32,000 bases of DNA from Candidatus Odinarchaeota archaeon (GTDB lineage Archaea; Asgardarchaeota; Odinarchaeia; Odinarchaeales; Odinarchaeaceae). The translations under genes and the position numbers were made by a program. The first letter of the stretch is position 1, and each line of letters opens with the position of its first letter. This document shows, one piece after another, positions 9,704 to 16,412 of this stretch. The DNA lies in the NCBI GenBank assembly GCA_038826135.1, contig JAWBON010000001.1:22812-54811 (forward strand), in the 5' to 3' direction. The notes beneath the pieces are model-generated. The model searched no databases and was not told the DNA's origin. It saw only the letters and a list, made by a program, of their open reading frames with translations.

Positions 9704-11365
9704 TTATTTATCTTCCGCCGGGTTTGTAAACTTATTGTAATAGTATTCAGCGTATCTTTTAAGGTATCCCGCTGTTTTTGTTTCCGGTTTAACCCATTCT
9801 CTTCTCCTTTTAGCTATTTCACTTTCACCAACCAGCAGGTCTAGTATCCTATTCGGGATGTCTATTCTAATCCTGTCGCCATTTTTAACAAGGCTTATTG
9901 GTCCTCCTAAAGCAGCTTCAGGTGATACATGGCCTATGCATAAGCCTCTAGTCCCACCTGAAAATCTTCCATCTGTTATAAGAGAGACCTCCCTATCCAT
10001 TCCCCTTCCCATAAGATTCGCGGTGGGGGTGAGCATCTCCCTCATTCCCGGTCCGCCTATAACTCCCTCATATCTTATAACTATAACATCTTTAGGTTTT
10101 ATTTCACCTTTACAGATCGCTTCAGTAGCCTCCTCCTCGGAGTTGAAGACTTTAGCCGGTCCCTCATGAACCATGTTCTCAGGGTTCACCGCTGTCTGCT
10201 TCACCACGGCTCCTAGTGGGGCTAAGCTTCCTTTTAAAACAGCTATACCCCCCTCCTTATGGTAGGGTTTATCGACCGGTCTTATAATATTTTCATCGAT
10301 GATTTTGAAACCGTCTATCAGTTTCCCTAATGGTTTACCGGTGACGCCTACAGTGTTAAGGTTGAGTAGTTTTTTAAGTTGTTTGAGCAGAGCTGGAACA
10401 CCGCCCGCTTTCTCCATATCCCACATGGTGTAAGGGCCGCCTGGTCTCAGATTTACTAGGTGGGGGGTTGTTCTCCCTAACCGGTCGAATTCATCTATTT
10501 CTATTTTAATATTCAACTCCTCCGCTACCGCCGGTAAGTGTATGGTTGTATTAGTTGACCCCCCTATAGCCATGTCGACTCTAATAGCATTTTCAAAAGC
10601 CTCCCTTGTAAGTATATCTGAAGGCTTTAAATTCTCTTTTACCAGTGAAATAATTCTGACACCCGTTTCATATGAAATTCTAAGCTTCTTCGCTTGAACA
10701 GCGTGAGCTGTTCCGCAGCCTGGCAGTGACATGCCGAGGGCTTCCGTAAGACAGGCCATAGTATTCGCGGTGAAGCATCCGGCACAGCTTCCAGGACCCG
10801 GGCACGCGGAATCCTCAAGTTCTTTAAGCTCTTCTAAACTCATTTTACTGTTTTGGTAAGCTCCAATCGCTTCGAAAACTGTTATTACATCCGCAGGTTC
10901 TCCTTTAAACAAGCCGGGCATCATGGGGCCGCCTGTTATTACTATGCTTGGGATGTTTAATCTTGCAGCCGCTATCAGGTGGCCTGGTACAATTTTATCG
11001 CAGGAGGATATGAGAACCATGCCGTCAAACTGGTGGGCTTGAACCATCAGCTCCACTGAGTCTGCTATTAGATCCCTGCTGGGAAGCGACATTTTCATGC
11101 CGATGTGCCCCATCGCTATTCCATCACATATACCGATTGTGTTGAATTCTATAGGGGTGCCTCCGGCTGACGATATGCCTTTTTTAACCATTTCGCTGAG
11201 TGTTCTAAGATGTATATGTCCTGGTACTATCTCATTCCAGGAGTTTACAACCGCTATTAGAGGTTTCTCCAGTTCACTATCAGTTAACCCGGTGGCTTTT
11301 AGGAGTGCTCTGTGCGGAGCGTGTTCAACACCTTTCTTAATATTGTCGCTTCTCATCTTTACCAC
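9704..11365 (-). CDS. ilvD: Dihydroxy-acid dehydratase
   Basis: [50 protein letters not shown]. The start may be the ATG at 11356. Confidence 0.97.
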
Positions 11366-11366
11366 G

Positions 11367-12296
11367 TTAGTAGACTGGTGTAAGCCAGTGAAGATATTTT
11401 TTATTTCTACCGTTTACAGCCTCTAAGTACGCTTTCTGTATTTTTCTTGTTATCTCACCAGGTTTCCCATCACCTATGATTGTGGTGTCGATTTTAACAA
11501 CAGGGGTGACTTCCCCGGCTGTCCCGCATATAAATACTTCATCAGCCCTGTATAATTCGCTTCTAGTGAGATCGGTGACTGTGACGTTTATGTTGAGCTC
11601 GCTTTTAAATAATTGAAGTAAACTGTCACGTGTTATCCCTTCTAGAATAGATGCGTATAATGGTGGGGTGTAAACTTCACCTTTTCTTACGACGAATATG
11701 TTCTCCCCTGTTCCCTCGCTTATAAACCCTCTTTGGTCGAGCATGATGGCTTCAGTGTATCCTTTTTCAACAGCTTCTAACCGGGCTAGGACGGAGTTGA
11801 GGTAGTTGCCGCATGCTTTAGCCTCCGGGGGTAAAGCTCTAGGTGAAATTCTCTCCCAAGAGGATACTAGGCAGCTGATCCCTTTCTCCAGTACTCCTTC
11901 ACCCAGGTATTCTTTGAAAGGTATTACATATATGGCTGTGTTAACAGGGCTTTTCAGCGGATTCAAGCCTAGAGGCCCGTATCCTCTGTAGACTATTGGT
12001 CTTATGTAACAATTTTCTTTTATATTATTGACTTTTATTATATCTTTAATAGCTTGAGATAATTCCTCATACGTGTATGGTATTTTCATCCTGTATACTT
12101 TAGCTGAATTGTAAAGTCTCTCTAAATGTGCTTTTAAACGGAATATGTGAACGTTTCCGTTGAAAGCGTACCCTCTAAGCCCTTCAAAAACTCCTGTGCC
12201 GTAGTGTAATGCGTGAGTTTTAACATGGATGTTAGCGTCATCCCATTTCACTATTCTACCATCCATCCAAATATAATCCGCTTTTTCCTCGGACAT
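11367..12296 (-). CDS. ilvE: Branched-chain amino acid aminotransferase
   Basis: [23 protein letters not shown] (PLP Lys), [25 protein letters not shown]. Confidence 0.96.
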
Positions 12297-12339
12297 TTTT
12301 AGCGCCTCTTTAACAGGAGGTTTAATTTTACGCGTGTTT

Positions 12340-13323
12340 TTACTCTAATCCTATTTCGCGTCTAAGCTGGGCTCCAATCTTCTCTATCAGCCTCTTCTCC
12401 TCTTCAGCTCGAAGCTCACTGAGTTTACGGGAACCTTTCTGATACTCCTCTATCCATTCTTTAGAGAACTGTCCGCTCTGTATTTCTTTTAAAATTTTCT
12501 TCATATCCTCTCTTGTCTGCTTGTTTATGATTCTAGGCCCTCTTGTAAGACCTCCGTATTTCGCTGTGTTACTGACAGCCTCCCACATTCCTTTCAAACC
12601 TTTAGCGTATATCAGGTCAACTATTAGTTTCACTTCGTGGAGGCATTCATAATACGCCATTTCAGGCTGGTAACCAGCTTCTACTAGTGTGTCGAAACCG
12701 GCTTTGATAAGCTCTGTTAAACCGCCGCATAATACCACCTGCTCTCCGAACAGGTCGGTTTCAACCTCTTCTTTGAATGTTGTTTCTATAACTTGTACCC
12801 GTGTTAAACCGATAGCTTTAGCCATTGCTAGAGCTATTTTTTTAGCTGTACCAGAGTAGTCTTGAGCTACTGCCAGTAATCCAGGTACACCGAAGTTGTT
12901 TAAGTACTCTCTTCTAACAGCTTTCCCCGGTGCTTTCGGGGCTATCATAATTACGTCAACATTGTTTGGGGGTATTACCTGTTTGAAATGTATGTTGAAG
13001 GCGTGGCTGAATCCTAGAACCTTCCCGGCTGTTAAATTAGGTTTAATATCCTCTTCGTAAACTTTTTTCTGAGCTTCATCCGGTATGAGTATATGGATTA
13101 TGTCAGCTGTTCTAGTAGCCTCGCTTATGGGTAGTACTTTGAAGCCGTCTCTTTCAGCAGCTTCAGCGGTTTTACCTTTTCTCAAACCTATTATAACTTT
13201 AACCCCGCTATCCCTCATATTCATGGCTTGAGCCATACCCTGGTTTCCGTAGCCTATAACAGCTACGGTTTTGTTTTTTAAAATATTTAAGTCAGCGTCA
13301 GCATCCGTATATTTTTTAACCAT
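12340..13323 (-). CDS. ilvC: Ketol-acid reductoisomerase (class I)
   Basis: IGYGNQG, FSHAFNIH, APKAPG, ETDLFGEQVVLCGG, AYYECLHE, SNTAKYG. GGAGG SD 7 nt upstream. Confidence 0.97.
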   Translation of the reverse strand: MVKKYTDADADLNILKNKTVAVIGYGNQGMAQAMNMRDSGVKVIIGLRKGKTAEAAERDGFKVLPISEATRTADIIHILIPDEAQKKVYEEDIKPNLTAGKVLGFSHAFNIHFKQVIPPNNVDVIMIAPKAPGKAVRREYLNNFGVPGLLAVAQDYSGTAKKIALAMAKAIGLTRVQVIETTFKEEVETDLFGEQVVLCGGLTELIKAGFDTLVEAGYQPEMAYYECLHEVKLIVDLIYAKGLKGMWEAVSNTAKYGGLTRGPRIINKQTREDMKKILKEIQSGQFSKEWIEEYQKGSRKLSELRAEEEKRLIEKIGAQLRREIGLE

Positions 13324-13334
13324 TTAAACTCCTC

Positions 13335-13811
13335 CTATCTTTTCAAAGCTATTATACCGGATCTAACTATTTCCGTTACATATTTCTGTTCTATATGGTT
13401 TAGTATATGGTCTATCTCGCTGATGGGGCCGCTGATCTCTATCGCGTGTCCTTTAACATAGCTTACTAATGAGACGTTAGACTCCCTTGTTAACTGTTTG
13501 ATTTGTTCAAGAATATTCTCATGGTGGTTTTTAAGTTTAATTATAACTAGCTCTCTGACAACAGCCTCCTCAGCTCTTAGCTGAGTTATTTTTTTAACAG
13601 ATATCAGCCTGCTTAATAGGTTTCTCATAAACTTTGCTTTCTTAGGGTCTGCGTCAAATGACATTATTATTCGCGCTGTTCTCTCACTGAGCTCTGATGG
13701 CCCTACTGAGATTCTAGATATGTTGACAGCTCTTCTGCTGAATATGGAGACTACTCTCTGCATTACACCAGGCTCGTCGTCAACTATAAGTGAAAATATG
13801 TAATGTGGCAT
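13335..13811 (-). CDS. ilvN: Acetolactate synthase small (regulatory, ACT) subunit
   Basis: DDEPGVMQRVVSIFSRRAVNI ACT motif and C-terminal EIVRSG. Located between ilvB and ilvC. Confidence 0.9.
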   Translation of the reverse strand: MPHYIFSLIVDDEPGVMQRVVSIFSRRAVNISRISVGPSELSERTARIIMSFDADPKKAKFMRNLLSRLISVKKITQLRAEEAVVRELVIIKLKNHHENILEQIKQLTRESNVSLVSYVKGHAIEISGPISEIDHILNHIEQKYVTEIVRSGIIALKR

Positions 13812-13815
13812 CTTA

Positions 13816-15486
13816 TCACCCTATCATTTTATCGATCTGCCCCCCCGGTCTTACCATGGGGAAAACGTTGCATTCCCGGTCCACTTCAAAATCTATGACG
13901 GTTGTTTCACCTGATTTTATCGCCTCTATAAAGGCTTCCTCTATCTCAGAGCATCTGGTTACTTTAATACCTTTAGCACCGAACGCTTCAGCTAGCTTAA
14001 CGAAATTTGTTTTCTCCCCTAGGAACGTGTAAGAATATCTTTTCTCATAGAATAACTCCTGCCATTGTCTAACCATTCCAAGATACCGATTGTTTATTAT
14101 AGCCGCTATTACTGGTATATTATTCTCCACCGCGGTTGCCAGTTCATGGCATACCATTAGGAAGCTACCGTCACCTGCAACATCTATAACGGTACTGTCG
14201 GGTTTAGCTGCTTTAGCTCCTATAGAGGCTGGTAGACCGAAGCCCATTGTGCCTTGGCCGCCTGACCATATCACGGTTCTAGGTTTTTTAGGCTTATAGT
14301 ATAAGGCGGTCCACATTTCACATTGACCGACCTCTGTGACGACTATGTCGTTTTCCTTTAGAATCGAGTTCATCTTCTTTATTATAAGCGGCGGCTTTAT
14401 CGGGTGGCTTTCCTCAGGTTCAGGCAGCGGATTATCTTTCACTAATTGTTTAATTCTATCCATCCAGGGAGTGTTGTGTTTCTTTAACCCGGTTGTCTGC
14501 ATATAATATATCAGTGATTTAACTATTTCTTTAGCGTCTCCGATTATCGAAATATGGCTTTTAATATTCTTATCTATTTCAGAAGGGTCGATGTCTATGT
14601 GAATTATTTTAGCCTTAGTGGCGAAGGTTTTCTCATCCCCTGTAGCTCTATCATCGAATCTGCAGCCTACAGCTATGAGGCAGTCTGACTCCATTAAAGC
14701 ATAGTTAGCCGGCTTTGTACCATGCATCCCTATCATACCTAATGCTAGAGGATGATACTCTGAGATTGAACCTTTACCCATAAGTGTGGTAACCACTGGT
14801 GCGGGGAGCATCTCCGCGAGTGTTCTGATCTCCTCAGCTGCGTTTGAAATTATAACCCCGCCTCCGGCTAATATCACCGGTCTATCAGAATCCATTATCA
14901 TTTTAGCTATTTGTTTAATTCTTCTGAGACTTAGTATAGGAGTTTTACCTGTATAGAACTGCTTGTATAATATTTTTCTAGTAGCTTTTTTAGTTTGGAC
15001 ATCCTTCGGCAAATCTATATGAACTGGGCCGGGACGACCAGAGGTGGCTATGTCAAAAGCCATATTCATTATTCTAGGTAAATCGTTAACGTCTTTAACT
15101 AGGAAATTGTGTTTGGTTATAGGTATTACGAGGCTGTAAAGATCCGCTTCTTGAAAAGCGTCTTTTCCAATGTATTGAACTGGCACTTGTCCTGTAATAG
15201 CTATTACCGGTGATGAATCAGCGTACGCTGTTGAGATACCTGTTAAAAGATTAGTAGCGCCTGGACCTGACGTTGCAATCGCCACTCCAGGTTTTCCGCT
15301 AGCTCGAGCGTAGCCGTCTGCTGCGTGAGCGGCTCCCTGTTCATGTCTAACTAATATGTGTCTGATTGATTTTTCATCGTATAATTCATCATACAGGGGC
15401 ATTATAGCCCCGCCTGGCAGTCCGAAAACTGTTTTCACACCCCTGTTTTTAAGAACTTCTAACACTATTTCAGAACCGCTTAACAT
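13816..15486 (-). CDS. ilvB: Acetolactate synthase large subunit (biosynthetic type)
   Basis: FGLPGGAIMPLYD, RHEQGAAHAADGYAR, TSGPGATN, TPP-binding GDGSFLM...NN, LGMVRQWQ. The ATG at 15486 is preferred over the GTG at 15501. Confidence 0.96.
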   Translation of the reverse strand: MLSGSEIVLEVLKNRGVKTVFGLPGGAIMPLYDELYDEKSIRHILVRHEQGAAHAADGYARASGKPGVAIATSGPGATNLLTGISTAYADSSPVIAITGQVPVQYIGKDAFQEADLYSLVIPITKHNFLVKDVNDLPRIMNMAFDIATSGRPGPVHIDLPKDVQTKKATRKILYKQFYTGKTPILSLRRIKQIAKMIMDSDRPVILAGGGVIISNAAEEIRTLAEMLPAPVVTTLMGKGSISEYHPLALGMIGMHGTKPANYALMESDCLIAVGCRFDDRATGDEKTFATKAKIIHIDIDPSEIDKNIKSHISIIGDAKEIVKSLIYYMQTTGLKKHNTPWMDRIKQLVKDNPLPEPEESHPIKPPLIIKKMNSILKENDIVVTEVGQCEMWTALYYKPKKPRTVIWSGGQGTMGFGLPASIGAKAAKPDSTVIDVAGDGSFLMVCHELATAVENNIPVIAAIINNRYLGMVRQWQELFYEKRYSYTFLGEKTNFVKLAEAFGAKGIKVTRCSEIEEAFIEAIKSGETTVIDFEVDRECNVFPMVRPGGQIDKMIG

Positions 15487-15660
15487 ATTCAAAAAGACCA
15501 CTCTCCGGTGGGAAAAATATTCTGGTTTACAAATAATAGAGGTGAAAAACCGCAGTTTTTATTTTGGTTTGGAGGACGGGATTGAAAGGTAGCTTCTAGC
15601 CTAGATAATAAAGTAATTCCCCTTATCCAGGGGATTGACAAAGCTAGTCCTCCTTAACAT
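15487..15660 (-). promoter_or_regulatory. Candidate structured 5' leader of the ilv operon (nested stems, uORFs, oligo-T tracts)
   Basis: On the minus strand GGAGGAC pairs with GTCCTCC and TAGCTT with AAGCTA. Internal hairpin TCCCCT-GGATA-AGGGGA, hairpin AAAAAC-TGCG-GTTTTT, three T5 tracts, and a TATA-like TTTTTAAG at 15688-15681. Confidence 0.5.
15489..15641 (-). CDS. Candidate 50-aa leader peptide (uORF) MSIPWIRGITLLSRLEATFQSRPPNQNKNCGFSPLLFVNQNIFPTGEWSF
   Basis: AGGAGG exactly 7 nt before a TTG. The TGA stop lies 2 nt before the ilvB ATG. Six of the first 15 codons are Ile/Leu. Not in the ORF track. Confidence 0.4.
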   Translation of the reverse strand: MSIPWIRGITLLSRLEATFQSRPPNQNKNCGFSPLLFVNQNIFPTGEWSF

Positions 15661-15704
15661 CTCCACCACTATCACGCTCTCTTAAAAATAATGTATTTCT
15701 GTAT

Positions 15705-16412
15705 TTAACTTTTTCGTAGTCTTTTATGTCTAATCGTTTTCTTAACTTTTTTTACGGGTTCTCTATCTGTTTTATCAACGGTTTTCGAGGCTGCTAAAAA
15801 CCAGTATGCTTGGAATATTAAAGCTGCGATCATAATTATAATTCCGGCTGTTAAATAAATCATATATCCCGCCATAGAGGCTAGCATAAGAATAGCGGTT
15901 ATCGTTAAAACTTGTTTAAGTTGAAGATAACCTGTGAACTCTTTTACAGCTATGTAAAGCATTAGAATCCATACAACCAGATATATGATTAGAGGTGCTA
16001 GTGTAAAAGATGAAAGAATGTTAATCAAGTACACTATGTTTGAAACTGTTTCAGACTCGCCTATAATATTGGACGCTAAAACCACCAGTAGGCTAGCTCT
16101 GCTTATTTGGAGGGCTGTGTTTATGAGAACATACCATAAATACCCTTTCAGGAAGATTCGGGTTTTACCTGTGTTTTTGAAAATATACTCGTTCGGTGTT
16201 AGAATCTTATAGCTGAAATATATTATAAAAAGCAGTAGCGCCTCTGTCAAAATGATTATTAATAAAATAATGGTTGTAAGAAGTGTGCTGGGAGGGTAAA
16301 ATAATATTACAAGATGTGTAATATATATTAAGGCAACTACTAGACTGGAGAAAAATCCTCTAAGCGTTTTTTTAACGTTTTCACTAAGCTCGTCTTTTAG
16401 CAAAATCCCCAC
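15705..16412 (-). CDS. Hypothetical membrane protein (about 6 TM) with basic C-terminal tail
   Basis: 235-aa hydrophobic ORF ending VKKVKKTIRHKRLRKS. Confidence 0.75.
   Translation of the reverse strand: MGILLKDELSENVKKTLRGFFSSLVVALIYITHLVILFYPPSTLLTTIILLIIILTEALLLFIIYFSYKILTPNEYIFKNTGKTRIFLKGYLWYVLINTALQISRASLLVVLASNIIGESETVSNIVYLINILSSFTLAPLIIYLVVWILMLYIAVKEFTGYLQLKQVLTITAILMLASMAGYMIYLTAGIIIMIAALIFQAYWFLAASKTVDKTDREPVKKVKKTIRHKRLRKS

Follow-up and report, generated by a model that had tools for sequence, protein, structure and literature searches.

What occupies the long spacer in front of the ilv operon of Odinarchaeia, and does it sense amino acids or deliver ribosomes? The window analyzed is a 32,000-nucleotide stretch of DNA, positions 22812-54811 of contig C1 of G000, an Odinarchaeum-like Asgard genome of 1.26 Mb in 105 contigs. 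By Pfam, its minus strand encodes ilvB (15486-13816), ilvN (13811-13335), ilvC (13323-12340), ilvE, a class IV aminotransferase (12296-11367), and ilvD (11365-9704), in that order, the block as a whole spanning 9704-15486; all features described below are on this strand. Other Odinarchaeial loci likewise have the order ilvB-ilvN-ilvC(-ilvE). The gene 5' of the leader encodes a 235-residue membrane protein without a Pfam family and ends at 15705, leaving a gap of 218 nt before ilvB, and at all complete Odinarchaeial loci a long gap with no called gene inside it precedes ilvB. An initial annotation had proposed that the gap holds a 50-codon upstream open reading frame (uORF) acting either as a leader-peptide attenuator or by translational coupling.

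For comparison, G000 was aligned with three sister species whose loci are collinear and whose IlvB proteins are 89-92% identical. A protein search with IlvB returned further Odinarchaeial enzymes at 92, 87, 78, 76, 76, 66 and 62% identity, and their contigs were fetched. Ten Odinarchaeial ilvB loci could thus be compared, with IlvB identities from 100% down to 66%: five within the genus (G000 to G003 and L137) and five lineages outside it (L129, L130, L131, L133 and L135). A single module was found 5' of ilvB at all ten: a BRE/TATA-like motif, Shine-Dalgarno (SD)-like motifs, an SD placed seven nucleotides before UUG-UC, a GC-rich hairpin, and an open frame. The eleventh locus, L136 (IlvB 62%), is cut by a contig end; its frame is open over all 108 nt present and ends at +13, and the gene caller called it too.

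Trained on genus sequences alone, a covariance model recovers the module 5' of ilvB in L135, L129, L130, L131 and L133 (E-values 3.5e-11 to 0.008) and finds no module at two Bathyarchaeial ilvB loci, where an aspartate kinase gene is upstream. When 147 further Asgard genomes were scanned with a covariance model of the 103-nt genus element, no credible match emerged, the top one lying inside an unrelated gene, and a DNA-pattern scan of the genome contigs had matches in Odinarchaeial records only. In this genome the module occurs once. No Rfam family reached its gathering score, and a permissive scan of the leader gave a best E-value of 1.7. More distant ilvB loci (56% identity or less) were considered as module carriers and rejected because their upstream contexts are different. 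The small open reading frames upstream of ilvB at these loci encode coiled-coil proteins, DUF465-like as judged by eye, and are unrelated to the uORF; in L052, L057, L073, L067, L081, L108, L109 and L111-L113, which are probably bacterial, a coiled-coil gene of 69-95 residues overlaps ilvB at ATGA.

Conservation within the genus is concentrated in the 5' part of the leader. Positions 15615-15654 are invariant at 37 of 40 sites in the four genus genomes and rank second in conservation among the 40-mers of the 10.4-kb alignment. Only 20% of ilvB 4-fold sites are identical across these genomes, so neutral sites are near saturation, and the 5' block of the leader matches the best parts of the enzymes in conservation. 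The 3' two thirds of the leader are just 37% invariant, like other spacers.

The uORF itself begins at UUG (15641-15639) and has 50 sense codons and a TGA stop (15491-15489), occupying 15489-15641 and running into ilvB as TGA-AT-ATG. These coordinates, given in the initial annotation, were checked and are correct, and the frame is open in all ten loci, where it is 50-69 codons long (50, 55, 54 and 54 in the four genus genomes) and the remaining two frames hold 2-8 stops. Its stop falls between -4 and +26 nt from the called ilvB start. Dinucleotide shuffling gave probabilities of 0.013-0.10 per leader for an open frame, and for six effectively unalignable lineages, with values of 0.013-0.09 each, the product is 2.4e-9. 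Since the bodies of these six leaders align at no more than 51-61%, which in our judgement is close to what unrelated AT-rich sequence would give, they were treated as independent. Evidence from the genus alone is modest: shuffles give P values of 0.05-0.09 per genome, a conservative simulation of neutral drift puts the joint probability of the frame's staying open at about 0.03-0.06, and it is the more distant lineages that carry the case. Amino acid identity within the genus is nevertheless specific to the frame (43% vs 33% in the other frames; column-shuffle P = 0.0004), and there is a weak codon-position periodicity in codons 13-43 (22/16/21 variable columns). A metagenomic variant about 95% alike over the leader, with 11 differences across 216 nt, has lost one nucleotide, at 15507, and its uORF stop shifts to +17, as in the sister species. 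Two sequencing runs labelled metatranscriptomic, which are probably DNA and are stored as contigs, leave 15338-15681 uncovered and carry no information on expression, and no RNA source is listed for this part of the window. We take a uORF conserved both as a frame and as part of a module in every Odinarchaeial lineage examined to be real and, judging from these comparisons, probably translated. A second short frame noted earlier, starting with ATG at 15660, was discarded as a leader feature: the ATG is missing in the three aligned sister species and in the other Odinarchaeial leaders examined.

Entry of ribosomes would be favored by an array of G-rich motifs. The uORF SD, AGGAGG (15654-15649), stands 7 nt before the UUG, as had been claimed; its GGAGG is invariant and the 7-nt spacing is fixed in all ten loci. 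Genome-wide, the distance from GGAGG to the start codon peaks at 7-8 nt, which fits the spacing seen here, and UUG opens 16% of the strong-SD genes of this genome. The UUG start is invariant across the ten loci. The second codon is UCN in each of them and its third base is free, with A, G, C and U all occurring. The main SD is preceded, within the putative 5' UTR, by the G-rich SD-like motifs GTGAT (15675-15671) and GGTGGAG (15667-15661); both can base-pair with segments of the typical 3' tail of archaeal 16S rRNA, and a role for them in initiation is likely. The SD-like set of the module can be written GUGAU, GGUGGAGG, AGGAGG. In most of the ten leaders a motif resembling GTGAT or TTGAT, and after it G(G/T)GGAGG, are found 1-6 nt 5' of the main SD, with GGTGGAG confined to this genome and GTGGT replacing GTGAT in G001 and L137. 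The 5' UTR at 15661-15675 and its equivalents in L129-L135 also contain four to six GG doublets spaced 1-9 nt apart (GG-U-GG-C-GG-U-GG-A-GG in G001), and such runs could, in principle, form a two-layer RNA G-quadruplex over the SD.

Just inside the frame is a GC-rich hairpin, UCCCCU-GGAUA-AGGGGA (15634-15618; uORF nucleotides +8 to +24), that the initial annotation had recognized as TCCCCT/AGGGGA. It is predicted at the same place in all ten leaders, beginning at +8/+11 and ending at +21/+24, and is still predicted when the RNA is folded at 75 C. The stems vary by lineage (UCCCCU/AGGGGA, UCCCCA/UGGGGA, ACCCC/GGGGU, CCCCU/GGGGG, GGCCC/GGGCC), so that letters change on both sides while pairing is kept; changes from U:A to U:G also occur. 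These stems were read from per-sequence folds, since loop lengths differ and the model-fitted alignment had local ends. The initial annotation had made its proposal depend on conservation of the stems or of the uORF in orthologous leaders, and both the hairpin and the uORF are conserved in the ten loci. The hairpin is also a perfect palindrome at the DNA level and may have a role there. An operator shared by a regulon was considered and rejected, as the intergenic DNA of this genome contains no second copy of the palindrome.

Other proposed structures are not part of the common module. The initial annotation had suggested that GTCCTCC can sequester the uORF SD. This anti-SD is indeed present (15577-15571, 69 nt after GGAGGAC at 15653-15647, to which it is complementary) and encodes Pro-Pro at codons 23-24, and the duplex is significant in four leaders of the ten, with z-scores of -3.1 in G000 and -4.1 to -4.3 in G001, G003 and L137. 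In G002 and all five lineages outside the genus the helix is absent (z at least -0.8). It is a lineage-limited feature of four of the five genus members and lies outside the core module; a conserved anti-SD pairing of the kind that would mark an SD-sequestering riboswitch or RNA thermometer was not found among these leaders. As an aside, AGGACUAGCUU of the uORF entry site (15652-15641) can also pair with AAGCGGUUCU in codons 3-6 of ilvB (15484-15470), forming 10 bp with one bulge. This ilvB-start segment is the minimum free energy (MFE) partner of the entry site in G002, where the anti-SD has been lost, and in G003 a synonymous C-to-U change leaves a G:U pair in the helix. A TAGCTT/AAGCTA stem that had been thought to reinforce sequestration is private to this genome, and the three T5 tracts noted in the leader are real here and vary in number from 0 to 3 across leaders. 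Folding of the full leader is no better than that of shuffled sequences (MFE z = -0.18), the RNAalifold consensus contains only the hairpin, the lineage-limited SD:anti-SD helix and a weak 3' helix, and the consensus folds yielded no conserved terminator/antiterminator alternatives.

Where is the promoter of this leader? The probable ilv promoter is the BRE/TATA-like motif CGAAAAAGTTAAATA at 15716-15702, conserved in ten loci of ten, which overlaps the stop codon (15707-15705) of the gene for the 235-residue protein. Its core, AA(A/G)AGTT(T)A(A/T)ATA, also written AAAAGTTAAATA, persists where the upstream gene differs and ends 60-93 nt 5' of the UUG. The TATA-like TTTTTAAG chosen in the initial annotation (15688-15681) exists, within a second AT-rich motif ATTATTTTTAAG (15691-15681) that is invariant in the genus; L130, L131 and L135 have variants with a T-rich run and TAAG, as do, in less clear form, L129 and L133. 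Because the motif at 15716-15702 is the better conserved of the two, transcription may start some 20 nt further upstream than was assumed. For the motif at 15691-15681 three roles are conceivable: it may serve as a second TATA box, form the AT-rich -10 region of the upstream promoter, or act as the oligo-T terminator of the upstream gene. Genome-wide profiles of TATA-to-start distance and of a leaderless signature were flat. A promoter immediately 5' of ilvB was rejected: AT-rich motifs exist there, but neither their quality nor their distance (15-26 nt) is conserved.

The 3' end of the leader merges with the ilvB start region, in which an in-frame TTG (15492-15490) and an ATG (15486-15484) are candidate start codons (15484-15492). 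The view that ilvB has no SD does not hold, for a conserved SD-like motif, GGAGAGTGG (15506-15498), stands upstream of it, with AAGGTGG, AAGGTGA and GGGAGAGTGA as its counterparts in other lineages, 4-9 nt 5' of an in-frame TTG or ATG. Its nucleotides are conserved even though different uORF frames read them. Having an SD-like motif of its own, ilvB may not depend on the uORF. In this genome the uORF stop and TTG 15492 share nucleotides in a TTGA; the junction in L129 is ATGA. The N-terminal alignment of IlvB relatives starts at the ATG. In L135 and L130 no ATG occupies the usual place and the called ilvB start is a TTG located 4-5 nt 3' of the SD-like motif, which suggests that the in-frame TTG may be the true start in the others (15492 here).

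Does the uORF matter for its product or for the act of translating it? Outside the genus the peptide is unconserved and unalignable, and only Met-Ser and the residues imposed by the hairpin persist; SIPWIRGITL and the Pro-Pro of codons 23-24 are conserved within the genus only. A conserved peptide at a fixed stall distance, as in nascent-peptide arrest of the TnaC, SecM or fungal AAP type, was not found among the uORFs. Searches of 5.8 billion clustered and 1.84 billion representative proteins returned no homologue: the word-indexed search had no match, and the exhaustive profile search had two, both repeat-protein artefacts. Gene callers evidently miss this first cistron, since neither collection yielded a matching protein. 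Composition of the uORF follows the U-rich RNA, and Ile, Leu and Val make up 16-32% of codons across loci vs 27% in the proteome, that is, without enrichment; no tandem runs or clusters of these codons were seen in the uORFs, and none of their positions persists beyond the genus. The six Ile/Leu among the first 15 codons that had drawn attention to the leader are peculiar to this genome (P = 0.04), the relatives having four or five. Selection thus appears to bear on translating up to ilvB rather than on the peptide.

These data make very improbable the attenuation half of the initial proposal, in which stalling at Ile, Leu or Val codons switches structures or oligo-U termination and so raises transcription. 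It is true that a short leader open reading frame with its own ribosome-binding site precedes an ilv operon, and that this genome combines the Ile/Leu codons with three T5 tracts and an SD:anti-SD helix; but regulatory codons and structures fail together, the former being neither enriched nor fixed, and the leader offering no folding energy beyond chance, no conserved alternative helices, no anti-SD in six of the ten loci, no constant set of T5 runs, and no Rfam leader family. The coupling half fits the uORF, its SD-N7-UUG and its stop at the ilvB start. A small protein acting in trans, for instance a fast-evolving partner of acetohydroxyacid synthase, would explain why, within the genus, residues 1-11 match IlvB in conservation and codons 13-43 show frame-specific conservation. 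We nevertheless consider it quite unlikely, as length, C-terminus and frame relative to ilvB all vary, little beyond Met-Ser survives outside the genus, the protein collections searched yielded no homologue, and the amino acid composition is that of the RNA. Slimmer still are the chances of a purely non-coding element, be it a small riboregulator or a palindromic operator for a transcription factor, with a frame that is open fortuitously. The palindrome is perfect, and the 7-nt spacer and G-rich motifs, with their possible two-layer G-quadruplex, are conserved beyond what an SD needs. Chance would have to keep the frame open in six independent lineages (P about 2e-9), however, and stem letters vary with pairing kept, unlike a protein recognition sequence; moreover the palindrome has no other intergenic copy, the module is unique in the genome, and Rfam gives no match. 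A protein or ligand might act on the hairpin besides the uORF, which would be compatible with coupling.

A frame kept open across Odinarchaeia while its peptide is unconserved points to a cis-acting coupling leader and not to a bacterial-style sensor of Ile and Leu. We accordingly favor, as a probable though not secure explanation, a translated uORF that acts in cis by bringing ribosomes to the ilvB start, coupling its translation and shielding the transcript. As in coupled cistrons, the frame is open in 10/10 loci whatever the peptide, and the stop lies within about 30 nt of the ilvB start; the range over which coupling operates in Haloferax and E. coli covers stop positions of -4 to +26 nt (PMC10666635; PMC12548453). 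The strong conserved entry site (G-rich SD-like motifs, AGGAGG, 7 nt, UUG-UC) would recruit ribosomes, and the weak UUG together with the GC hairpin 5-8 nt past it would set initiation. As the hairpin lies inside the space that an initiating ribosome needs, it would have to open. Ribosomes would then translate 50-69 codons through a U-rich, G-poor leader, with amino acids largely free to vary, and terminate within the ilvB ribosome-binding region, the junction here being TTGA / TGA-AT-ATG. The likely outcome would be termination-reinitiation, or unmasking of a modest ilvB start site. Translation would also be expected to shield the oligo-U-bearing leader from premature FttA- or oligo-U-dependent termination; both the delivery of ribosomes by uORFs and FttA-dependent polarity on untranslated RNA are noted in a review (PMC12548453). 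What the comparison shows is that the module, the open frame, the hairpin and the stop position are conserved; the translation itself, the transcription start site, the sign of the coupling and any modulating signal we infer from sequence.

The sign could be the opposite. Ribosomes translating or terminating on the uORF would cover the ilvB SD and start and prevent ilvB from initiating independently, with the hairpin and the UUG tuning repression. In every lineage the uORF crosses the SD-like motif and start codon of ilvB, in several it ends 13-26 nt inside the gene, and ribosome-mediated occlusion of ribosome-binding sites by uORFs has been described in bacteria (PMC13285730). The overlaps reach 26 nt past the called start, or 35 nt when counted from the upstream in-frame TTG, compared with the classic -4/-1, and longer overlaps lower reinitiation (PMC12548453). 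Yet the identical anatomy suits positive coupling, between which and repression sequence alone does not discriminate, and the canonical TTGA of this genome and ATGA of L129 are overlaps typical of reinitiation; a repressive uORF seems to us rather unlikely. Returning to positive coupling, an obligatory UUG followed by a hairpin that needs to melt would be an obvious control point. One speculative and doubtful extension is that, through these two elements, a cellular signal acts on uORF initiation and by that route on the translation of ilvB and on completion of the transcript; candidate signals would be initiation-factor stringency, temperature, a hairpin-binding protein or a metabolite.

How does this leader compare with known systems? 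It resembles coupled upstream cistrons, whose termination-reinitiation has been demonstrated in E. coli and Haloferax volcanii (PMC10666635; review, PMC12548453): a short open reading frame carries its own ribosome-binding site and stops next to or across the following start codon, the sequence of its peptide does not matter, and the anatomy is conserved across relatives. The Odinarchaeial pair differs in joining a leader open reading frame to the first gene of a biosynthetic operon and not two subunit genes, in having junctions from -4 to +26 nt and not fixed at -4/-1, and in its extra SD-like motifs, obligatory UUG and conserved hairpin after the start. The ilvL, ivbL and leuL leaders of Enterobacteria and the Corynebacterium ilvBNC leader (PMC11857589) share with it a short leader open reading frame before ilvB. 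Unlike them, it has no clusters of regulatory codons and no conserved terminator/antiterminator pair, it reaches ilvB whereas bacterial leader frames end well upstream, and its host, being an archaeon, lacks both Rho and bacterial intrinsic terminators. In Haloferax volcanii, small open reading frames in 5' UTRs, some of them conserved among relatives, are known from ribosome profiling footprints (PMC7261190), whereas the Odinarchaeial uORF, from an Asgard lineage, is supported by comparative sequence and has a conserved 5' module of defined composition.

Cis-acting leader open reading frames are textbook regulators in bacteria and eukaryotes; to our knowledge few are documented in archaea. 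Regulatory uORFs of eukaryotes reportedly have weak or near-cognate starts, and Kozak is said to have found that a downstream hairpin favors start recognition. The likeness lies in a non-AUG start that is kept, a stable hairpin close by, and an amino acid biosynthesis gene downstream; initiation here is evidently SD-directed, with no scanning, and nothing indicates homology. Starting at +8, within the ribosome footprint, the Odinarchaeial hairpin is more likely to be inhibitory, unlike the start-favoring hairpins of eukaryotes. A literature search found no report of a cis-acting leader open reading frame in Asgard archaea, and Rfam, the protein collections and the literature contained nothing describing the Odinarchaeial ilv leader. 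The case is well defined across a class, with an exact start, a fixed SD spacing, a hairpin with two-sided stem changes, and a peptide that drifts. In a lineage of Asgard archaea not in culture, it offers a concrete system on which to test translational coupling, polarity and control by the start codon. If uORF initiation does respond to a cellular signal, as in the speculative extension above, the leader would be a uORF-based circuit for amino acid control in the archaea most closely related to eukaryotes.

Two further observations emerged from the alignment of the four genus genomes. Its most conserved 40-mer is at 13495-13534, inside ilvN, where 38 of 40 positions are invariant, third codon positions included; this may reflect an overlapping signal within ilvN. 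Codon-periodic conservation also exposed, in an apparent 450-nt gap, a gene for a 77-residue archaeal histone (8970-8737, minus strand; Pfam CBFD_NFYB_HMF, E-value 2.7e-12).
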